In this document: positions 4,175-64,000 of the stretch, in pieces
Layout of the letters: every line of letters begins with the position of its first letter
Position numbering within the stretch: the first letter of the stretch is position 1
Assembly: GCF_964194155.1 (NCBI RefSeq)
Contig: NC_135899.1
Coordinates: 68,262,001 to 68,326,000, forward strand
Length of the DNA stretch: 64,000 nucleotides
Direction of reading: 5' to 3'
Origin: Cetorhinus maximus
Taxonomy: Eukaryota
Position numbers and translations under genes: made by a program
Notes under the pieces: generated by a model
Databases searched by the model: none
Told to the model about the DNA's origin: nothing
What the model saw: only the letters and a program-made list of their open reading frames with translations

Positions 4175-4359
4175 CTGAATAGAAGAGTTAAAGAAGTTCA
4201 GAGAAATTAACAAAAGGGATTAATGTAATTACTACTACATACTATCTTCAGAGCGCTGGAGTAAATAAGACTTAAAAAGAGATCTCAAAATGTCAAATGG
4301 TTTAGGCAGTCAAGTTTAAGCTGTTTTAAAGCACCCTGTTAAATATATATTTTCCACAC

Positions 4360-4847
4360 CAGTTTTTCCTGTTTCTTCTTTTTTCTCTTCAGTTTCTCAA
4401 CCACTTCAAGTTTTTTCTGTGCTTTCTCTCGCTGTCTCTGGGATCTGTCCTTTCGATTTTCTCGCTCCTTGCGATACTTTGAACATTTTGATTTTTCTTG
4501 GCTAAGTGAAGAGCTATCCGAATCAAAGTTTTTGTGGTGGGTTTCTGTGGTGGACAGTTTTTCAATTTCACTGCCAATAAAATTGGATTTTAACATCCTT
4601 GTTTGGTCTTTGCTGTTGAGAACATCCAAGTCGCTTTCATCACTATCCAATGTCGCTCTCCGAATACGTCGTAATTTTTTGCTCTTATCTACAGCATTAG
4701 TGTTCAAGTTTTGCTCCTCATTCTCACTCGCATCATCCGATTTTAAATTGCTGATTTTGTTCACATTGCTTGCTTCCCCATCACTATCACTCTCCTGTAC
4801 AGGTTTTCTTGTTGTTTTCTTACAAGGAAAAATTTCCTCTTCTGAAT
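4360..4847 (-). CDS. CLSPN: Claspin coding exon 3
   Basis: ccag|ATTCAG...AAACTG|gtgtgg; DSEEEIF..RKPVQESDSD..DSDES..EKLKRKKKK matches the claspin N-terminus; phase 1 to 0. Confidence 0.9.
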
Positions 4848-5432
4848 CTGGAAGGAAACAAAAAAGTGATTGATTCACTTCAATTTTGATATATTGCACT
4901 GTAAATTTGTCTGAAGTACTCCCAATTTATTATTTATTACACAGAGTTGGATGTCAACTTCATTGAATTCATACTGTCACAGAAATATAAATATAGAAAT
5001 TTTAGGTTGATTTATTTGCTACTCAACTAGGGAACAGTTTAAAAGATAGCACACTACAGAAGCACATTGCCATAGCATGAACACACTACAGCTGGGACAC
5101 TGGGGAGAAAAAAAGAGTGCCATCTGAATGTTGGTGTATTATTCAACTGAAGTTTGTCACACATATGAATCCTCACAATTACAGAGTAACATGACCATAT
5201 GCCAGAACACAAGCAACCTGCTGAATTGAAGCAGTTTTTTTTTTCTTTAAAACTTGTTAAACTTCAGAAACATGTTTTCATCACTCATTGTCACTGGCTT
5301 GCAGTCAGGAAGTATAACACATCTCCAGTACCTACTACTATTGATTCAAGCTATATCAAAACTTGAACACAAATGGTCCAATGGCATAATACCAATGTTA
5401 AAGTTTACGTTCTGAGATTTAAGTCAAAAACA

Positions 5433-7372: not shown

Positions 7373-7593
7373 ACAATGTGAAAATCAAAAAATTAAAACT
7401 AAAATGAACAAGTATCACTATTTAAGCACGGAACCTCAATTCTTTTAAAACTCAGCACAAAAGTTGACTGTTTTCAACAGGCTTCACAGGAATTCCTACA
7501 TACTCAATATTAAGTGGGTGCAGATATCTCCGGGACATACAACGTTCCTCGGATTGCTGTTCCTGTTGCATTCTGAGATCCACACTCAGTGCC

Positions 7594-10003
7594 ATGCGCC
7601 GTCATATGAACACACTCGACCTCTCCCTCCAGCAGCACCGCCGCACCCTTTTTCAAAGCTGCGCGTGCCCCCAGTTTCATTTTATTCTTCGTCTCATCCG
7701 ATGCCTCAACAAGAAACTTTTTCTCTTTCTCTCAAGTGCTAAGGAACGCAAGCTCCAACAACTCATCGACACCAACACCCATCTGGGACCCTCCACCCCT
7801 GCCTGTACCTCTGTCCCTATCCCGTCTTTCAATCCCAGCCCTGGCCGTTTATTCACCATACCCCATGACCTTCCCCTCTCCGACACTGAACGTTCAGTGC
7901 TCAGCAAAGGACTTAGTTTCATACCCTTACGCCCTCATCTCAATGAATTTCGGGCTTGGCACGATGCTGAACTCTTCTTCCGCCGCCTTCGTCTCCGTGC
8001 TCACTTCTTTGGGCAGGAGTCCTCTCCCCGTTCAACGGATCCTTTTACCCACCTCCAATATTCTCCCTCCACCTGGACCCCTCCCTCTGGATTCTTACCT
8101 TCTCTTGATCTTTTCATTGAGAACTGTCGGTGTGACATTAGTCATCTCAATTTCTCTGCTCCTCTCACCCATTCTAACCTGTCTCTCTCTGAACTTACTG
8201 CACTCCGTTCTCTCAGGTCCAACCCTGACATTGTCATCAAACCCGCTGTTGTTGTCTGGTGCACTGACCTCTACCTCGCCTCCGCTGAGCGTCAACTCGC
8301 AGACACTTCCTCCTACCTCTCCCTGGACCATGACCCCACCACTGAACATCAAGCCATTGTTTCCAGGACTGTCACTGACCTCATCTCCTCTAGAGATCTT
8401 TCTTCCACAGCTTCCAACCTGATAGTCTCCCAACCTTGGACGGCCCTCTTCTACCTCCTACCCAAAATCCACAAACAGGACTGTCCCGGCAGACCGATCG
8501 TGTCGGCCTGTTCCTGCCCCACGGAACTCATTTCTCGCTATCTTGACTCCCTTCCCTCTCCCCTTGTCCAGTCCCTTCCCACCTACATCCGTGATTCCTC
8601 TGACACCTTACGTCACTTCAACAATTTCCAGTTCCCTGGCCTCAACCACCTCCTCTTCACCATGGATGTCCAATCTCTCTAGACCTCCATCCCCCACCGG
8701 GATGGTCTAAGGGCTCTCTGCTTCTTCATCAAAGAGAGGCCCGAACCATCCCCATCCACCACTACTCTCCTCCGTCTGGCTGAACTTGTTCTCACACTGA
8801 ACAATTTCTCCTTTAACTCCTCTCACTTCCTCCAAATAAAAGGTGTGGCTATGGGTACCCGCATGGGCTCCAGCTATGCCTGTCTCTTTATGGGGTACGT
8901 GGAACATTTCTTGTTCCAGTCCTACTCCGGCCCCCTCCCACAACTCTTTCTCCGGTACATCGATGATTACGTCGGTGCTGCTTCATGCTCTCGTCAGGAC
9001 CTGGAAAAATTTATGAATTTTGCTTCCAATCTCCACCCCTCCATCACTTTCACATGGTCCATCTCTCACACTTCCCTTCCCTTCCTTGACCTCTCTGTCA
9101 ATTTCTGGTGATAGACTGTCCACCAATATCCATTACAAGCCTACCGACTCCCACAGCTACCTCGACTACAGCTCCTCACACCCCGCTTCCTGTAAGGACT
9201 CCATCCCATTCTCTCAGTTCCTTCGCCTCTGTCGCATCTGTTCTGATGACGCTACTTTCAAAAACAGTTCCTCTGACATGTCCTCCTTCTTCCTTAACCG
9301 AGGTTTTCCACCCACGGTCGTTGACAGGGCCCTCAACCATGTCCGGCCTATCTCCCGCGCATCCGCCCTCACGCCTTCTCCTCCCTCCCAGAAACATGAT
9401 AGGGTCCCCCTTGTCCTCACTTATCACTCCAGCATTCAAAGGGCCATCCTCTGCCATTTCCGCCAACTCCAGCATGATGCCACCACCAAACACATCTTCC
9501 CTTCACCCCCCCCGGCGGCATTCCGTAGGGATCGTTCCCTTCGTGACACCCTGGTCCACTCCTCCATCACCCCCTACTCCTCCTCCCACGGCACCTCCCC
9601 ATGCAAACGCAGAAGATGCAACACCTGCCCCTTCACTTCCTCTCTCCTCACCGTCCAAGGGCCCAAACACTCCTTTCAAGTGAAGCAGCATTTCACTTCC
9701 CCCAACTTAGTCTACTGCATTCGTTGCTCCCAATGAGGTTTCCTCTACATTGGAGAGACCAAACGCAGACTGGGTGACTGCTTTGCAGAACATCTTCGGT
9801 CTGTCCGCAAGAATGACCCAGACCTCCCTGTCGCTTGCCATTTCAACACTCCACCCTGCTCTCATGCCTACATGTCTGTCCTTGGCTTGCTACATTGTTC
9901 CAGTGAAGCTCAACGCAAACTGGAGGAACAGCACCTCATCTTCTGACTAGGCACTTTACAGCCTTCCGGACTAAATATTGAGTTCAACAATTTTAGATCT
10001 TGA
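7594..10003 (+). pseudogene. Disrupted PLE ORF: reverse transcriptase + Cys-rich linker + C-terminal GIY-YIG endonuclease (Neptune-like layout)
   Basis: YLLPKIHK, PGRPIVS, FTMDVQSL*TSIP, QIKGVAMG..YACLFM, LRYIDD, PFLD..YKPTD, CKRRRCNTC, LVYCIRC..YIGET..EH..HFN..GLN; stops at about 8680, 9734 and 9944, frameshift near 9100. Confidence 0.93.
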
Positions 10004-10362
10004 AGTCTCTCCTCCATCCCCACCCCCTTCCCGTTTCTTCCCCCTCCTTTTTGTTTTTTCCAATAATTTATATAGATTTTTTCTTTTCCCACCTATTTCC
10101 ACTAATTTTAAATGTATTTCCACCATTGTTTATTTCTACCTTTTAGTATTCCCCCACCCCCACTAGAGCTATCTGTACCTCATCTGTCCTGTCTTATACT
10201 CTTAATTAGCACATTCCTTTAGATAATATCACCACCTTCAACACCTCTGTTCTTTTATCTGTGACAGCTTTTGGTTATCTCCTCCTATCACTGGCTGCTT
10301 GTCCCAACCAACCCTGCCCCCCCCAAACCAGCTTATATTTCACCCCTTTCCTAATTTTACTT

Positions 10363-10401
10363 AGTTCTGTTGAAGGGTCATGAGGACTCGAAACATCAAC
10401 T
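10363..10401 (+). ncRNA. Minimal type I hammerhead ribozyme-like motif (variant core) in PLE 3' repeat
   Basis: AGTT-CTGTTGA-A-GGGTC-atgag-GACTC-GAAA-CATC-AACT: stem I AGTT/AACT, stem II hairpin, GAAA; palindrome ACGT decayed to ACAT. Confidence 0.65.
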
Positions 10402-11154
10402 GTACTCTTCTCCGCCGATGCTGCCAGACCTGCTGAGTTTTTCCAGGTATTTCTGTTTCTGTTTTTATTATTATTAAGTGGGTGCATTCCACTTTACCTA
10501 TTGTTTGGTAGAATTGTCTGCTAACCTCGATGGAAGAGTACTTCAGCCAAGGATTGTTTCATTACTTTTGAAATCTATTGCTCATATTTGTGAATCATAG
10601 TTTTCGGGTAAGTTGTTCAATAACAAGCCAAATAATACTGAAATACTGAGTTAGAAGCAAGTTGATTAATATCCTATTTATAGACAATTTCACCTCCATA
10701 ACATTTTGCAAGAAAAGAATTTCCATTGCCGGGCTAAGGATTTATTTTATTTTTGGCAGTCCTGACATGGAATTAATTTGCTGATGACAATTACGAATTG
10801 ATTATTCCAAATTGCTCGTGGATGAATAATGAATGGTCAGAATTGATTTTGTACCAATATACACAGATATGAACCTACACTCTACACGCCAGTAAACCAT
10901 AATGACCCAGGATATTTTCTAAAACACATAATTTCTTGTGTTCCTTTCACTTGGAGCACCTATTATAGCCTAGCAAATAAATAAATGAGAAAACAGCTAC
11001 AATACAGGATGTAGGTTCACAAAACATGTAAAAGGTGCTGCAAAAACTGAATACCTGTTGAAATGCGACTGTAGTACTGGACTAAGCCCAGTATTTTTCA
11101 GATAAATGACAGCATTCATTTTACTAATGCAATTCAATAATACTAGGAAGACAG

Positions 11155-13689: not shown

Positions 13690-14375
13690 AGGAGGGAGGA
13701 AGCGGGCCGATCCGACAGACAAAAGAGCCGAGAAGCGTCACCTGGGGGGAACAATCCCCACTGGATCCCAGTCAGCCGAGACTGAGAGCCGGGGCCCCCG
13801 CCTGCGCGCCAAGCCGAAGCCCGAGCCAGCCCCGCTCGCCGCCTCCATTTTGCTCTTACCTCCGTACGCGGCTGCGTCTCCGACACAGACATAGCGGAGT
13901 AATTAATGCAAAACACTTGAAAAAGAGATTTTTTTTTTAAAAATGGCGTCAGTTCTGAAGTGCCGTTGGTGTCAGAAACTCAGAGTTTAAAAAAAAATTA
14001 CTTCATTCCAACCATTAAAGACGAAGCGGCTCCACTCGCCAACAGCGGAAAACCGACAAGCTCTCCAAATTTGACCTCCCCGCACAGCGCACGCGCCGCA
14101 ATCAGGGCCCCGCCCCAGCGCTCGGTGCTCCTTGATTGGTGCCGGCGAGATGGACCACGCCCCTTCTCTGCCATAAATGGCGAGGCAGCACTGCAGCCAC
14201 GCCCCCCCCCCCCCTGCGGCCCGGGAGGCACCGGGTCCCCACTCCAGGGTGATTGTAACAACGAAAGACTCCGCCCCTTTCCTGGGATGATTGACGTGTG
14301 CAGCGCGCCGGGCGTCAGCTGGCGCCTGCGATTGGTGCCTTTTTCCCTCTGCGCTGCGGCGGCAAATTTGAAATA
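13690..14375. promoter_or_regulatory. CpG-island promoter of CLSPN with cell-cycle motifs
   Basis: GC/CpG-rich; inverted CCAAT (GATTGG) near 14134 and 14330, GC box near 14108, YY1-like AAAATGGCG near 13940, E2F-like GCGGCAAA at 14359-14366 abutting CHR TTTGAA at 14367-14372. Confidence 0.75.
13860..13892 (-). CDS. CLSPN: Claspin coding exon 1 (MSVSETQPRTE)
   Basis: ATG at 13892, GAG|gtaaga donor, 33 nt phase 0, inside a CpG-rich island; short first coding exon as in tetrapod CLSPN. Confidence 0.8.
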
Positions 14376-15456
14376 GATAAAAGCAAAGATCTGCGGATGC
14401 TGGAAATCCAAAACAAAAACAAAAATACCTGGATAAACTCAGCAGGTCTGGCAGCATCGATGGAGAGGAATACAGTTAACGTTTCGAGTCCGAGTTCAAC
14501 AGAACTAATTAAAAATAGAGAAGGGGTGAAATATAAGCTGGTTTAAGGGGGGGGGGGGGGGGTTTGCGGGGCGGGGGTTGGGGCAAGAAGAGCTAGGTAG
14601 AGGGCCAGTGATAGGTGGAGATAACCAAAAGATGTCACAAACAAAAGGACAAAGAGGTGTTGAAGGTGGTGATATTATCTAAAGGATGTGCTAATTAAGG
14701 GTAGAAAGCAGGACAAGCAAGGTACAGATAGCTCTAGCGGGGGTGGGGGGAAGGAATCGAAAAGGGCTAAAAGGTAGAGATAAAACAATGGATGGAAATA
14801 CATTTAAAAATAATAGAAATAGGTGGGAAAAGAAAAATCTATATAAATTATTGGAAAAAACAAAGAGGGGGGAAATCGGAAAGGGGGTGGGGATGGAGGG
14901 TAGAATTCATGATCTAAAGTTGTTGAACTCAATATTAAGTCCGGAAGGCTGTAAAGTGCCTCGTCGGAAGATGAGGTGCTGTTCCTCCAGTTTGTGTTGA
15001 GCTTCACTGGAATAATGCAGCAAGCCAAGGATGGACAAGTGGGCATGAGAGCAGGGTGGAGTGTTGAAATGGCAAGCGGCAGGGAGGTCTGGGTAATGCT
15101 TGCAGACAGACCGAAGGTCATGAACTGTCTCCTCCATCCCCACCCCCTTTCCAATTTTCCCCCTCCTTTTTGTTTTATCCAATAATTTATATAGATTTTT
15201 CTTTTCCCACCTATTTCCATTATTTTTAAATGTATTTCCATCCATACCTTTTAGCCCTTTTTGATTCCTTCACCCCACCCCACCCCACCCCACCCCCACT
15301 AGGGCTATCTGTACCTTGCTTGTCCAGCTTTCTACCCTTAATTAGCACATTCCTTTAGATAATATCACCACCTTCAACACCTCTTTGTCCTTTTGTCTGT
15401 GACATCTTTTGGTTATCTCCACCTATAACTGGCCATCTACCTAACTCTTCTTGTCC

Positions 15457-15797
15457 CACCCTCCCCCCAACCCTCCCCCCAACCCTCCCCCCAACCCTCC
15501 CCCCAACCCTCCCCCCAACCCTCCCCCCAACCCTCCCCCCAACCCTCCCCCCAACCCTCCCCCCAACCCTCCCCCCAACCCTCCCCCCAACCCTCCCCCC
15601 AACCCTCCCCCCAACCCTCCCCCCAACCCTCCCCCCAACCCTCCCCCCAACCCTCCCCCCAACCCTCCCCCCAACCCTCCCCCCAACCCTCCCCCCAACC
15701 CTCCCCCCAACCCTCCCCCCAACCCTCCCCCCAACCCTCCCCCCAACCCTCCCCCCAACCCTCCCCCCAACCCTCCCCCCAACCCTCCCCCCAACCC
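15457..15797. repeat. Perfect 12-bp tandem repeat (AACCCTCCCCCC) x about 28; G-quadruplex-prone on the minus strand
   Basis: 27 identical units at 15469-15792 plus imperfect flanking units. Confidence 0.97.
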
Positions 15798-15857
15798 TCT
15801 CCCCCCTCCCCCCTCCTTTAAACCAGCTTATATTTCACCCCTTTTCTATTTTTAATG

Positions 15858-15896
15858 AGTTCTGTTGAAGAGTCATGCGGACTCGAAACGTCAACT
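15858..15896 (+). ncRNA. Minimal hammerhead-like motif (CUGUUGA core, GUC triplet)
   Basis: AGTT-CTGTTGA-A-GAGTC-atgcg-GACTC-GAAACGTC-AACT. Confidence 0.7.
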
Positions 15897-15961
15897 ATGC
15901 TCCTCTCCACCGATGCTGCCAGACCTGCTGAGTTTTTCCAGGTAAATTTGAAATAGACCTC

Positions 15962-16070
15962 TGTGCTGATGAAGAGTCACACGGACTCGAAACGTTAACT
16001 CTATCTTCCTCTCCACAGATGCTGTCAGACCTGCTGAGTTTTTCCAGCAATTTCTGTGTTTGTGTTTGTG
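15962..16070 (+). mobile_element. ~110-bp PLE 3' terminal insert carrying a hammerhead-like motif with canonical CTGATGA core
   Basis: CTGATGA-A-GAGTC-acacg-GACTC-GAAACGTTAAC at 15966-15999; 15-bp TSD TTTGAAATAGACCTC at 15947-15961 and 16071-16085. Confidence 0.85.
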
Positions 16071-16249
16071 TTTGAAATAGACCTCCTCTTTTTGACCTGG
16101 TGCTGAGTGACACACAGTTGCCCCATTGGCACATAACAGAAACATAATAGCAACATGGCAAATGCCCTTGCAAGGTACCATTAATATAATAAATAAACAA
16201 TACATTCAAATATATAAACGTGTCCAATACAGCAACAGAAAAAAATCAT

Positions 16250-28798: not shown

Positions 28799-29085
28799 AT
28801 AAAAACAAAAAACTGCAGATGCTTCACTTGAAAGGAGTGTTTGGGCCCTTGGACAGTGAGGAGAGAGGAAGTGAAGGGGCAGGTGTTGCAGCTTCTACTG
28901 GCTGCTTGTCCCTACCCACCCCCCCACCCCCCCCCCTGCTTAAACCAGCTTATATTTCACCCCTTTCCTATTTTTACTTAGTTCTGTTGAAGGGTCATGA
29001 GGACTCGAAACGTCAACTGTGCTCTCCTCCGCCGATGCTGCCAGACCTGCTGAGTTTTTCCAGGTATTTCTGTTTCTGGTTTTGT
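28799..29085. mobile_element. Short rearranged PLE insertion in an NCDN intron: inverted tail + inverted endonuclease fragment + direct 3' repeat
   Basis: TSD CTAGGAGCACTGCT (28785-28798) / CTAGAAGCACTGCT (29086-29099); 28820-28897 is the reverse complement of PLE 9610-9690; remainder matches 10290-10460. Confidence 0.88.
28980..29018 (+). ncRNA. Minimal hammerhead-like motif (CUGUUGA core, GUC triplet)
   Basis: AGTT-CTGTTGA-A-GGGTC-atgag-GACTC-GAAACGTC-AACT. Confidence 0.7.
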
Positions 29086-33434: not shown

Positions 33435-34587
33435 CTACAGCATAGGAAGAAGTAAACAGATGTGAGCTGAGGCAGCTAAATTTGCTATTTAAAATATGAT
33501 GTGAAAGAATTTCACATCAAAAAGATCAGTGGGAACACTTAAATGTGTACTGCAAGAGATTGTGAAACAAAGCTTCTACACCATAAGATTGCAAAAAGTA
33601 AGGGTGGTCTACACCACTCGAGCTGAATTGTTGAATGGTGCTTGGTGTTTCTCAGGACAAGAAAAAACTGGCTTACACAAGATGAAACACCACTGATTTT
33701 GGAATCCTAAAAAATCTCTTAGAAGGAGGAAATAAGACAATGAAGTTGGAAAACAGGTCTTAAATACAGATATTTACAACATTTCTAAACTTAAACCACT
33801 GGCTGTATGCAACCTCCATACTCATCTGATGGAAATTCAGTTTCCCCACTGGCATTTGCTGTCTACCATTCTTGGTTACTGTCTTTGGATCAATTCAAAC
33901 AGTTACCTGCAATTATGGCCAATTGGAGTGTCCCAAGTGTACAGCACACTGTTCCAACTGAATGTGTGGCTTAATCATTTCTGGACTCTCACAAGCAGTT
34001 ACCAAATACAATAGCACAGCTGGGAAGCAACTCTTTCATCTCACCCCAATCTGGCTGAGATGAAGAATTTACTATCTGTTGTGCAAAAACAACTGCAGTG
34101 TGTGACAGCCCGATAGTATATTATTTCTTAGCACTTCAAATAACAGAAGTTAAGAATTTCCACTATACAAAATATACTTTCAGAAGTGAGAAATACACTC
34201 TTTCAAGTCCACATCCACTAGTGACCAGAACACAAAATATCAATCAAATATACAGCAAATGCATTAATAGCACTGCTGTGATGAACTGGTTAGGGGCCTG
34301 CACTACACTAATCAAATATACAAGAGACCCCTGAACCATACATTATTTTTACATAAATATGAGTATATTCACCCCAACCCACCATCCCCAAGCTTCCCAT
34401 CGTGAACCATATTGAATGAGCTGGAGCAAAGGCAAAAACAATAATGCAACCTGCAGTATTACACTGAGGATTCAAAACCATAGCAAAATAATCTGTGTAC
34501 TTTGACACAAAAAAGTGTGGTTATAAGGATATACAAATACAAAATGCAGCAAATTATTCTAATGACAATCATATTTCCACACTTTAC

Positions 34588-35595
34588 CTGCTTAAAATAG
34601 CCAATGACCGCTCCAAACGCCTCCACCATTATCCGTACTAATTGGCTACTTTCAGCTTCTGTTAAACAGACTTTATCCCCAAGCACACAAACCATCATCC
34701 CAAATTCGATAATACTGTAACATGCTGTGATGACATCTGGTTTAGAGTTAGTCGCATCCAGGCCTGGGTCCTCCAAACAAATCCGAACTTCCACACAGGC
34801 CAGATTCACCATCAATGCCAGGAATTTACTTCTTGTTTCAGTATTCTCTGCCAGGATCCAGTCTGAGCCATAAACAGTCAATAACAGACCAGCAAGTTTC
34901 AGTGCTGGGTCCCGTTGCGAGATACTCAGCTTACTGCTGAGTATGCTGAAGAGACCAGTATGAAAGTTCTTCAAGCACCCAGTGAGAGATGGGTCCTCAG
35001 TTAGGATAGGTACAGCAGGTACAAAATGCTGCAATATGCTACACAGCTTAAATTTCCGGTTATCTTCTTCTGTAGCAAATTGCTCACTAAGCTTGATCAG
35101 TACCTTCAGGAGGTCGAGCTTACAAGTTTTCCAACATTTGTTTTCCATTGTGCTCAGGAGACTGACAAGAAGACACAATGCCTGCTCATGGCCATGATTT
35201 TGGTTGAGATAAGCCTGACATAATGCAGACACTGTTCCTTGAGTTACGAGATGTGTCTGACCCTGAGGATGGGCAGAAATCGCATGGAGACATTGGTAAC
35301 AGTCATCGATCATTGATGTGAAGGTCGCAATTTCTGCTCCAGAGTCTATTTCTGAACTAATAACTTCATTGAAAATGGGTATTTTGTTGAGGATTTGCGG
35401 ATGAGTGACCAATTCTGGGTTTGTGGAAAAACATGCAAGCAGAGTCATGCCAAGAGCTCGGAAAATTTGACTGGGACAGCCATGTGGTGACTCCTTGGTA
35501 ATAAGAAGTCGGTTTGGGAAAGAGAATCCAATTGCATCAAATATCCGTCGACGGGTTTCAACATCGATGTCTCCAGCCTTCACCACCTTGGTCAC
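34588..35595 (-). CDS. NCDN: Neurochondrin coding exon 2 (large)
   Basis: ttag|GTGACC...AAGCAG|gtaaag; VTKVVKAGDID..RRRIFDAIGFSFPNRLL..LMVNLACVEVR..EAFGAVI; 1008 nt. Confidence 0.97.
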
Positions 35596-54767: not shown

Positions 54768-55322
54768 CAACAAAAACAAAATTGGTGAAAAAACTCAGCA
54801 GGTCTGACGGCATCTGCGGAGAGGAATACAGTTAAAGTTTCGAGTCCGTATGACTCTTCATCGGAACTAAGAAATTTAGAAATGAGGTGAAATATAAGCT
54901 GGCTGAGTGGGGGGGGGGGGGGGGGGGGGGGGGGGGACAGGTAGAGCTGGATAGAGGGCCAGTGATAGGTGGAGGCAAAGAAGAGATTGCCAAAGATGTC
55001 ATAGACAAAAGTACAAAGGGGTGTTGATGGTGGTGATGTTAGCTGAGGAATGTGCTAATGATGACATTAAGGGTAGAAAGCAGGACGAGCAAGTTACAGA
55101 TAGCCCTAGTGGGGGTGGGGTGGGGGGAAGGGATCGAAATAGGCTAAAAGGTAGAGATAAAACAATGGATGGAAATACATTTAAAAATAATGGAAATAGG
55201 TGGGAAAAGAAACATATATATATAAAAATGATAAATTATTGGAAAACGGGGGATCGGAAAGGGGGTGGGGATGGAGGAGAGAGTTCATTATCTGAAGTTG
55301 TTGAACTCAATATTAAGTCCAG
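54768..55322 (-). mobile_element. PLE 3' repeat insertion with degenerate hammerhead-like motif (54830-54868)
   Basis: Reverse complement of PLE about 9965-10450; motif AGTT-CCGATGA-A-GAGTC-atacg-GACTC-GAAACTTT-AACT; imperfect TSD AAAAC(T)TGATA[C/G]TGCTC at 54751-54767 and 55323-55338. Confidence 0.88.
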
Positions 55323-55829
55323 AAAACTGATAGTGCTCAGTTAAGTACAAAATGGCATCTTGATCAAGGCTGAACGAGGGCATGTAAAGATTGAGGACAG
55401 AGTTTATATGAATGGAAGAAATTGAGGAGAGAGTAAATTTTTAAAGCTTGTATATTGGAGAACAAAAGCTTAGACGGCCCATTCAAACCGTGGATAAACT
55501 TGTGACTGTGACAAGTTGAATCGTTAAACTTTGGACTGTTTGTTGATGTCCTGTTATGTCGGTGTTGCTATGTTTTTTTAACGTGCAGATCTTGTGCACC
55601 TGACAGCAACATCAAAGCAAACTTGTTGGATTAGGGAAAATCCAGTTTTTTTAAAATTAAAAGCGTGGGCCTTAACCATTTAGAAAGTGCCCTTTTATAT
55701 CTTTTTCAATCCAAAGTGGATGATCTTATATTTTTTACATTGGACAAAATTTTGGCAAATGGGTTTCTTTCATTCACAAAACTCCTTGCGTTTTAAGCTT
55801 CCACGTGCAGTGCTTTCAATCTAGGTTTG

Positions 55830-58517: not shown

Positions 58518-58700
58518 TAAAAACAGAAAATGCTGCAAAAACTCAGCAGGTCTGGTGGAATCTGTGGAGAGAGAAGCAGAGTTAACATTTTGAGTCTGTG
58601 TGACTCTTCTTCTCCACAGATTCTGCCTGGCCTGTTGAGTTTTTCAGCGTTTTCTGTTTTTATTTCAGATTTCCAGCATTTGCAGTATTTTGCTTTTAAC
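58518..58700. mobile_element. ~180-bp hairpin element made of two head-to-head PLE 3' termini
   Basis: aaaacagaaaatgctgcaaaaactcagcagg..tctgtggaga pairs with tctccacaga..cctgttgagtttttcagcgttttctgtttt; loop holds a hammerhead stem II remnant (gagtc..gactc). Confidence 0.8.
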
Positions 58701-60650: not shown

Positions 60651-60882
60651 TGGTGATTGAATGCAACATTCATAATAACACTTGTAGAGAACATTTACTT
60701 TTTGGCAATCTGAATTGTTAGACCATAATTTGTGTTTTAAAATTAATACCAGGAAGCTATGGAAAAGTTTCAAATTGATGTAAAACTGAAACTGGGTGAC
60801 AGAGCTAATTAATAGTATATGGAAAACTGGGATGTTTCACCCCTCACTATTATTGCATTTCTACCTGTGTTCTCTAATGTAG

Positions 60883-61619
60883 GTGCAAATATGGAGGACT
60901 GCAAGATAGCAACAAGTCGTAGTGGGGTGGTTATGCGAGTTGGACTGGAAAGTCGATTTGCGGAACTAGTGGAGAAAACTGATTCCATTCAGTCTTGCAG
61001 AGATGCCTGCTGTCGGAAATGCCACTGCAATGTTGCATGGCTACTGGAAGGGAAATGCTACCTTTTAGACTGCAGGCAACAAGGAAACTGTCAGCTAGAC
61101 CAAACAGGCAAATCAGATTCTCTTTTAATGTTTATTCATAAACTTCCTCCTTGTGGGGATTCACAGAGTCCTGTGCACAGAATTTTAAAAGAAAATTTTC
61201 AATACAAAGCTGAATCAAGGACTTCTGATCTGACCACTACTGACAGAACCCTGGTTATAGGTCACTTATCTGGAAAATCACTGGTAGCAAAGCAAAACAA
61301 AATATTTTCCAGGACAAGACGGGAGGCACCTGCACCATCTGGTAGTCCTACGAAGATGCTACAAATTAATAAAGAATCTACTTCTGAACAGTCTCAAACT
61401 GTACCGCCTATCAATGGCAGCAAGGAATTAAGGCCACCTGGAAACACAGAACATAAAAGCACAAAGCATTTAAAACCACAACAGCATGCAAACGAAGATC
61501 CACAGACCTCTCGGAAAAACCTCAAGGCAAATGACACTGCGAGTGATCAAATTGCTAAACATTCTGCACCCGTTTCAGAGGGGAGAGACTTGGCGGCAAT
61601 ACAGACTCTACCTCCAGAG
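60883..61619 (+). CDS. KIAA0319L: KIAA0319L second coding exon: MANSC-type Cys-rich domain plus Ser/Thr/Pro-rich linker (gene continues beyond the right edge)
   Basis: gtag|GTGCAA...CCAGAG|gtaaat; QSCRDACC...CNVAWLLEGKCYLLDC....C..SDSLLMF matches recalled human QSCWAACC..CHVFWWLEGMCIQADC..SNSMLVF. Confidence 0.9.
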
Positions 61620-64000
61620 GTAAATCTTGAATTTTTAAAAAAATAAATCTTCCCATCTGAACTAATGCTTAACTAGAAATGATAGGTGCAAAAATATTTT
61701 TCTTCAGAGTTGGTAAGTGATTATATTCTTGATTTAAATGTGTAGTTTACATTGGAAAGCAATTGGTAACACACCATGTTTGTGTGTCAATGAATGTGCC
61801 GTAGACACCCATTGATTTTTCATGTGGTGAGTTCCCAGTGAGGACATTGGAATTAGTGCAGGTTTCACTGCAATGGAATAACACTGTATAATCAACTTAG
61901 ACCACACTGTTTACATGCGACCAGTGCAATGTTGAAAGTGGCCTACAGGAAGGTTGCCTTCCTAACAAGGAGCAGTAATATTTTGCTATAATTCTTATCA
62001 AATTATAGAATACTACTTCCCATTAACCTTTTGACTAAGAGAATTTTCACCAAAAGTTGCCAAAATTTTGGTGTGTATTTTCCTTACGTTTTGGAAAAAT
62101 GGAAAGCTAAATTTTATCTCAAATTACTGTAAATGTATTGTTAATGATCTAACAAATAAAAATAGAATTGTACTATCCAGGCCAGAAATGTGCTCCTCCT
62201 GCCATATTGAAGATGCCATTTTCGACATGAGAAACTGAGGCAAATGCAGTTATGATGTGGTCTTGGTATTCGGTACCAAACTCTGGATGTATTCCATTAA
62301 ATCATCTCCAACCACTCAACATTGTAGTTTTTTTTTCATTTCCAATACATTTATTACTAATAAACTAAAGTGTTCAAAGAAAATGAAAAGAAAAAAACAA
62401 TGAAAAGAAAAAAAAAATCCCTATGGATTTTTCTTCCTGATTGCTTGTGATAAGGTAGAGACTCCAAGACAATCCTGGAGGGTTGGCAATCTTGTCTGAG
62501 CACATGGTACGTACATGCTAGCCTCACTGTTACATCTGCCACTTCACCTTTCATGGGTGTAGGATGAAGAGAGCAGGGTGATTTGGAATTGGACTGTTCT
62601 GCATTATCACTTTTTATATATCTAATTTTCTTGAATTTAATTTGAAACATGTAAAATGATACAGCAGTTTAAAATAAGACAGAATATTTTGCTTAGCACA
62701 TTCTCCATGTTACAATTATTCTTTAAACTTAATGACAAGCTGTGTTACACACCGAACGACCTTTGAAATGTTTTTAATTACACTAAGCATGCTTAAGTGT
62801 GAGAGTCTCTCAGAAGATATTAAACCTCGTAGTTAAAGCTAATTAAGTTTCATTATCTGATATCCTAATATATTTAGTTACTTCATGCTCCATGGTTGGA
62901 ATTTTGTTTATTAGGCTAAATTTGTCGTGACTTGCTAAATGAAGATTTCTCAGCTTGTAATGTGTTTGAATGATTTGTTTCTAAAGCTGCCTAAAACAGC
63001 ATTATATTATTTCAAATGCACAAAGAAATTCGTTTGAAATAAATAGCGTGTTATGGTACTTCTTTTATGGGAAGTGGAGCGGATGCTCTGCTAGACAAAG
63101 TAATATCTAGCAATTAGCTATGAGCGTAATTCACTTGATTTGTTTCAGTGATCTTAAAACAATACTGGAATGCTTTATGAATATCAGCAGAGCACCAAGA
63201 CTGAATTACAGTCTGAAAGGGGAATAGCAATGTAGGGTTTAGGAATGGATTTCAAACTTTCTTGGTTGAAGAACCATTTCCTCCCCCCCACCACCACCAC
63301 CCATCAAATTCATGAGCAATCACAGACCCTGCATCCATGGCTGACACTCTGGATATCGTGAATTATGTTATCATTTGACTGGTTTGTAAGAGATTGTAAT
63401 ATGTGCTGAAAAATTATATAAATTATTTAAAGTCGGCCTGTAAGCCATCAGGCAGTAAATGTCCTTACTGTTGTTGTAGTGAGCTGCAAATGATTCATAA
63501 CATTTGGCAAATTATCCATTTTGTCTGCCAATTATTGACGCTTTGAAATTACATTTTGCACTGCTCTTTAGAGCGTAACTTCAGAGCCGTCTGAATATAG
63601 TAAGGAAATAACACTGTTGAATAAATACTAAGGTAATCTGGGAGGAAAAAAATGTTTCCTGGCGAAAACAATTCTGTTAAACTTTTCAAGTTTGTATGAA
63701 AATATTCAGGATCGTTGAATTTCATTATTTAATCTCCATTGTGACATTGAGTAAAATTGTAAGAAGTTTTTCATTGTTGTACATTGTTTAGTTGCTATGT
63801 TGACTCTGAGTTTATCTAGCAAGTAGCAGAGACATAAAGAAATGGGTGGATGTCAGGTTCGATCCATAGTTTGTGCTGATTTAGCAGATCTTGCTTCGCT
63901 TGGCAGTCAGGGTGTTTCAGTTGGCCCGTTTCAGTTGGCCCCACCAGTCCTGGTTTGGAAAGATGAATATCAGCCAGTGTTCCTGTCCTTGCTGCCTGTC

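Follow-up and report, generated by a model that had tools for sequence, protein, structure and literature searches.

Hammerhead motifs with U or C in place of the core base A6 in an amplified Penelope-like element lineage of the basking shark

The closest described relatives of the motifs studied here are the minimal hammerhead ribozymes of metazoan Penelope-like elements (PLEs). As characterised in the accessible part of PMC4209133, these have a type I layout within the pLTR, a 4-bp helix I, an extra base lying between position 9 and position 10.1, a G10.1-C11.1 pair, a palindromic 15.2-16.2 with no helix III, and C or U at position 17; dispersed truncated copies number in the thousands, and the motifs need a partner copy to form helix III and cut weakly in vitro. 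The basking shark motifs share each of these features of sequence, layout and dispersal. They depart from the described ones at core position 6, which is A in all 56 representatives of Fig. S3 in that part of the paper (none from a cartilaginous fish), whereas in the shark lineage about half or more of the copies, the youngest included, lack A6. The only core change highlighted there is U3-A8 and, because the descriptor used fixes the catalytic boxes, it would miss forms with U or C at position 6 (U6 and C6). A published core search string likewise fixes CUGANGA (PMC8557442).

The PAc Poseidon element of the green anole resembles the shark element in encoding a reverse transcriptase (RT) with a C-terminal GIY-YIG domain, and in having a hammerhead, with a tail after it, where pLTR and ORF meet (PMC11167929). 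According to the available sections of that study, the anole hammerhead cuts only with its protein and the uncut RNA serves as template; ribozyme mutants left in vitro insertion unaffected, reads ending where the RNA is cut were absent, and the tail is delimited by the sites at which reverse transcription starts. Those sections mention no change at position 6. The PAc ORF starts inside stem II, whereas the shark element has its start codon some 180 nt downstream, so that the shark motif, unlike that of PAc, is free of coding constraint. Naiad PLEs reach very high copy numbers without canonical hammerheads, and their describers suggested that hammerheads may simply parasitise PLEs (PMC8557442).

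A natural change at position 6, A6C, is described for phage Bcep176 in the available excerpt of PMC3088659, and the shark C6 form shares its CUGC start. That ribozyme has low but detectable activity and prefers Mn2+, while in another, fast hammerhead A6C costs about 10^5-fold at 0.3 mM Mg2+ (excerpts of PMC3088659 and PMC7151607); CUGA mutants are also low in a pairwise scan (PMC9901934). Bcep176 is a single phage example, whereas the basking shark holds tens of thousands of copies of a dimer-type motif that lacks helix III and has a U6 stage. While minimal hammerheads of PLEs are known already, the series A6, U6, C6 is new relative to the literature that we found. There the phage A6C was the only case met: neither a hammerhead with U6, nor activity measurements for one, nor a retroelement altered at position 6 turned up; the survey by Lunse, Weinberg and Breaker (2017), which reportedly covers many small PLE hammerhead variants, may contain such forms.

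The window, a 64,000-nucleotide stretch of the Cetorhinus maximus genome, had been annotated as holding six such motifs. All six lie where they were placed, four with U6 and two with A6, and are given here with the ORF scrap that accompanies one of them:

10363..10401, plus strand: minimal hammerhead with U6 core, its palindrome damaged by G16.2 to A
14474..14506, minus strand: minimal hammerhead, U6 core, with a 6-nt deletion in stem II
15858..15896, plus strand: minimal hammerhead, U6 core, undamaged
15962..16000, plus strand: minimal hammerhead, A6 subfamily, stem I without its 5' strand; a short insertion of its own
28980..29018, plus strand: minimal hammerhead, U6 core, undamaged, within a short pLTR-end insertion (28925-29085)
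28820-28896: inverted ORF scrap accompanying the insertion with the 28980 motif
54830..54868, minus strand: minimal hammerhead, A6 subfamily, decayed (U4C, broken palindrome), within a pLTR (54769-55336)

Two of the six (15858 and 28980) are undamaged; in the 10363 copy the ACGU palindrome is broken because G16.2 is now A. The layout proposed for the family by the initial annotation holds for the stem II arms and loops as listed there, while the full form, GAAACGTC-AACT, occurs in only two of the six, again 15858 and 28980. Two more degenerate relics lie near 58540-58660 (an inverted pair) and 16830. A descriptor combining stem I, core and stem II matched three times in the window and not once in any of 100 order-2 Markov simulations, so the window motifs are above chance expectation. 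An Rfam scan of the window returned no hammerhead family among its nine hits at E<=1, and the best of these hits, to a miRNA model at 58519, is really an inverted pair of PLE tails. The motifs at 15858 and 15962 were considered as one tandem; this was rejected, as they look like two separate insertions. The A6 insertion (15946-16087) has a direct repeat of about 15 nt on either side. At its left edge the tail of the U6 element ends, so that 104 nt separate the two motifs.

The identification of these motifs as PLE minimal type I hammerheads was borne out: they reside in the pLTRs of an element whose 917-aa ORF encodes RT and GIY-YIG. Its remains in the window are the following:

7521..10465, plus strand: 5'-truncated Penelope-like element, an ORF remnant with a 3' pLTR, lacking codons 1-78 and the 5' pLTR
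7522..10000, plus strand: RT and GIY-YIG ORF remnant, codons 79-917, with stops and a frameshift near 9100
10402..10465, plus strand: conserved tail 3' of the hammerhead
14409..15161, minus strand: 3' end of a second PLE copy, with the ORF end (14910-15161) and pLTR
15131..15945, plus strand: inverted pLTR of the same insertion as 14409..15161, carrying an expanded C-rich tandem repeat

The truncated element is 89.8% identical over 2998 nt (blastn) to an intact unit at locus L091, and its ORF remnant matches the protein P0002 at 89% in two frames (tblastn). The inverted-pLTR arrangement is known for PLEs (PMC8557442). In the C-tract of the inverted pLTR a 12-nt C-rich unit has expanded about 30-fold (15450-15810). 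Pfam found nothing on the four broken ORF pieces of the window, and the domains appear only on intact relatives: in all three of the 917-aa ORFs scanned, RVT_1 was found at E 2e-6 to 5e-7 (two of the three reach the curated cut-off) and GIY-YIG, at the C-terminal end, at E 4e-4 to 6e-4, below the curated cut-off in every case. The element thus has the single ORF with RT and C-terminal GIY-YIG of an endonuclease-bearing PLE. Intact 917-codon ORFs occur in the C6 elements L091 and L092, which have two direct pLTRs, and in L102; among the 16 relatives of the window's U6 element, only one (L247, itself a U6 element) has an intact 917-codon ORF.

L091 and L092 also show the PLE arrangement of direct pLTRs in partial tandem, inverted 5' copies and a tail. 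Both hold two direct motifs at a spacing of 3291 nt, together with an inverted copy on the upstream side; the L091 unit has a length of 3291 nt, and its two direct pLTRs carry one motif apiece. In full-length units the tail belongs to the 5' UTR, with about 180 nt between core position C3 and the start of the ORF. With the start codon so far beyond it, the motif is non-coding and belongs to the downstream unit's 5' UTR; we therefore rejected a coding constraint upon it. Short head-to-head inverted insertion pairs are numerous (L008, L009, L029, L037, L055, L110, L114 and others), with junctions at or inside the 5' end of the motif, which may mark a hotspot of template switching or truncation.

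Across the whole genome (3.99 Gb), exact patterns counted 19,393 U6 and 4,151 A6 motifs, and a looser pattern gave 18,597 matches for C6 or G6, of which 94 of the first 100 listed were C6 by eye; the reversed-pattern control gave no match genome-wide. When positions 3-9 were left free, a pattern that leaves out older A6 families with other flanks, there were 43,267 matches. The first 100 listed comprised, by eye, 50 U6, 41 C6, 7 A6 and 2 G6, that is, U or C in 91 rows where CUGANGA has A, and changes at positions 3, 4, 5, 8 or 9 in just 8. Exact non-A6 matches number at least 49,407 genome-wide, and all of the first 100 listed have C or U at position 17 (by eye).

We also drew a random sample of 99 evenly spaced 10-kb stretches, in which 69 copies were found by their tail alone, blind to the core. 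Thirty-six could be staged (14 A6, 14 U6, 7 C6, 1 G6), and the other 33 were dropped as truncated, rearranged or belonging to older families with other spacing. U or C took the place of A6 in 21 of the 36 staged copies, and A6 was kept only in the older subfamilies; 21 non-A6 copies in 0.99 Mb correspond to about 85,000 genome-wide (52,000-130,000). An older family with the same tail and another stem II, with an A-U first pair and a 3-nt loop (L111, L113, L119, L124), was excluded from staging.

The forms are ordered. A tree of the pLTR, for which positions 6 and 7 were masked and the 101 of 222 distinct copies with homologous upstream pLTR were used, climbs ladder-like from A6 by way of U6 to C6, with SH-aLRT values of 97-100 on the key branches; its labels need 10 changes where the minimum is 3, which points to some recurrence or exchange. 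The ORF tree (last 200 codons, 54 rows, three of them mis-assigned second motifs) independently shows the same ladder, though its support is weaker. Because neither tree has an outgroup, the pLTR tree being drawn from its midpoint, the direction was taken from divergence. In the core-blind sample the median copy divergence falls from 0.097 for A6 (n=14) to 0.062 for U6 (n=14) and 0.040 for C6 (n=7), with one-sided p values of 0.002 and 0.036 for the two steps and a correlation of stage with divergence of rho -0.67 (n=36). From copy divergence we infer that a single lineage passed from A6 by way of U6 to C6. Among intact full-length elements the youngest are C6, and from this and the order it follows that the window's U6 copies are middle-aged and that the present form is C6.

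The initial annotation had held that U6 was spread by retrotransposition and did not arise by decay, which the counts and the pLTR and ORF trees support; the same evidence rules out post-insertion decay as the source of U6. It had also named, among others, two observations that would speak against its reading, an absence of stem covariation and a restriction of U6 to old copies; instead there is covariation, and U6 is younger than A6. What it overlooked is that U6 is an intermediate stage, from which the lineage went on to C6.

From the first U6 stage on, 10 of the 39 motif columns changed in the stage majorities: positions 6, 7 and 17, plus three bases of loop II and four in the stems. All four stem changes preserve pairing (A-U to G-U, U-A to C-G, and U-A to U-G in stem I), and for the U-A to C-G change the U-G intermediate is seen among genomic copies. 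Stem II is paired in 100% of 20 distinct rows, the UA-to-CG double change included. Over helices I and II together pairing is kept in 98.3% of cells, with one double-change pair, a level reached by 1 of 500 shuffles, although this is not a probability because the rows are related; the covariation amounts to one compensatory event and three wobble changes, all in one related lineage. The core (C3 U4 G5, G8 A9, G12 A13 A14, A15.1-U16.1, H17) is unchanged in the majority of all 10 stages, for which staging required a near-intact core; searches with the core left free found no other amplified damaged core among the first 100 listed rows. The palindromic 15.2-16.2, the G10.1-C11.1 pair and the extra base after A9 are likewise present in the stage majorities.

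After the loss of A6, none of the 15 constrained sites changed as against five of the seven free sites (Fisher p=8e-4). In the strict core none of 10 positions changed, against 175 of 370 columns in the upstream pLTR, a figure that takes in low-complexity columns (p=0.002), while the tail changed at 13 of 68, from which the core does not clearly differ (p=0.20). Measured against the ORF, in which 16 of 181 four-fold sites (about 9%) changed between early U6 and late C6, the absence of change is less telling, with P=0.40 for 0 of 10 and P=0.25 for 0 of 15; since synonymous sites changed by only 9%, the unchanged core alone proves little. The pLTR, the free positions of the motif included, changes several times faster than synonymous sites, and within the motif this change spared everything that a hammerhead needs except A6. 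On this pattern of substitutions, continued selection on the fold is probable. About half the columns of the pLTR upstream of the motif have changed, compared with about 10% of ORF four-fold sites, which suggests diversifying selection or hypermutation in the pLTR.

The predicted folding depended on context. In the isolated 39-mer stem II is predicted at 0.94 or more, whereas once flanks of about 30 nt upstream and 100-150 nt downstream are included it falls to 0.0 in one U6 and one A6 copy and to 0.4-0.6 in one C6 copy; flanking context is thus predicted to disfavour the active stems alike in the A6 and U6 copies tested. The predicted self-duplex through the palindrome is worth only -3.1 to -4.1 kcal/mol. 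A U6-specific inactive rod in the predicted monomer (U4-U7 with A14-G16.2) was rejected as a lasting feature because C6 breaks it.

As an explanation we tentatively favour a slowed and possibly protein-assisted ribozyme that would still be under selection, in a lineage whose source elements swapped A6 for U and then for C. The motif is present in each pLTR, and U6 and C6 are fixed in amplified subfamilies. Two copies, in tandem pLTRs 3.3 kb apart or on separate RNAs, would join at the ACGU palindrome, completing helix III, and, by analogy with published hammerheads, the dimer would cut after position 17. Loss of A6 would lower the cutting rate strongly, and the slower cutting would be tolerated or even favoured because uncut RNA is the RT template and protein aids cutting, as in the one PLE tested. 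Cleavage has been tied to cap-independent translation in viruses (available part of PMC13725137), a possible reason, by analogy, to keep a ribozyme in the 5' UTR.

One could also speculate, with considerably less confidence, that in a retrotransposon active today slower cutting was itself selected, twice, at a supposedly invariant base, with the protein replacing the lost contacts of A6. In a lineage with about 10% of its synonymous sites changed, two changes each at positions 6 and 7 fit selection or hypermutability better than plain drift. If such detuning did occur, A6, U6 and C6 would form a natural series leading from a self-cleaving RNA to a protein-dependent RNP catalyst or switch.

It is also possible, though on balance doubtful, that catalysis went with A6 and that selection still acts on the hairpin and junction as a signal without catalytic role, such as an RT/EN binding or dimerisation site beside the tail, where reverse transcription starts. 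The stems do still pair, with C-G replacing U-A in stem II, and the adjoining tail is equally conserved; in the anole, RT starts define the tail and ribozyme mutants insert (available sections of PMC11167929), and the penalties of A6C in Mg2+ are large in the accessible part of PMC7151607. A pure binding site has no obvious need, however, for C3, U4, G5, G8, G12 and a position 17 other than G, and the tolerance of change at positions 7 and 17 and in loop II is the profile of a hammerhead, apart from position 6.

An unselected vestige, which the initial annotation left out when it weighed an active variant against a repurposed structure, is an unlikely account, in which A6U killed the ribozyme and the motif looks intact only because few neutral changes have accumulated since. 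The mere 9% change at ORF four-fold sites over the span from U6 to C6 would allow it, and so would the very high copy numbers of Naiad PLEs, which lack canonical hammerheads and whose describers see hammerheads as possible parasites of PLEs (PMC8557442). Yet the 10 changed columns of 39 are, apart from position 6, all free or pairing-keeping, the surrounding pLTR changed at 175 of 370 columns, and in searches that left the core free, any other damaged core appeared in at most a few of the first 100 rows.

A cause unrelated to folding, namely removal of an upstream AUG at A6-U7-G8 or splice signals overlapping the motif, is very improbable: A6U does delete an AUG from the 5' UTR, a pyrimidine tract with AG precedes stem I, a CAG/GT arose in the tail at the late A6 stage, and PLEs are known to have introns in the 5' UTR (PMC8557442 and the accessible part of PMC4209133), but one stage on loop II gained a new AUG that became fixed and was kept, which led us largely to reject AUG removal, the oldest stage avoided the AUG through the free position 7, the step from U6 to C6 is left unexplained, and none of the six joints listed has GT..AG ends. 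These joints come from contigs of uncertain RNA status (four runs).

The lineage bears on whether Penelope elements need hammerhead cutting at all, given that in vitro activity is low and that anole ribozyme mutants still insert in vitro. It amounts to a dated natural experiment in which a key core base was lost while tens of thousands of copies were still made and intact elements persist. In such a genome, the PLE hammerhead-like motifs that are most abundant and youngest would escape descriptors that fix CUGANGA, so that reports of PLEs without hammerheads may need a search with position 6 relaxed.

Several further features of sequence were recorded around the motif. The 5' strand of stem I is a pyrimidine-rich tract ending in AG (L091:4121-4139 and all stages with upstream sequence), which resembles a splice acceptor and is situated where the intron of Drosophila virilis Penelope ends. 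The donor-like CAG/GT site (window 10444-10452 and relatives) became fixed after its late A6 origin. U6 elements have a branch-like motif, pyrimidines and an AG just 5' of the start codon, and this AG is absent in the C6 elements L091 and L092.

Host sequence in the window is found at 13700-14400, 34459-35595, 60816-61646 and 4339-4926. It comprises a GC-rich, promoter-like island (13700-14400) that directly adjoins the PLE copy starting at 14409, a neurochondrin exon, a KIAA0319-type exon and a minus-strand exon with a resemblance to claspin.
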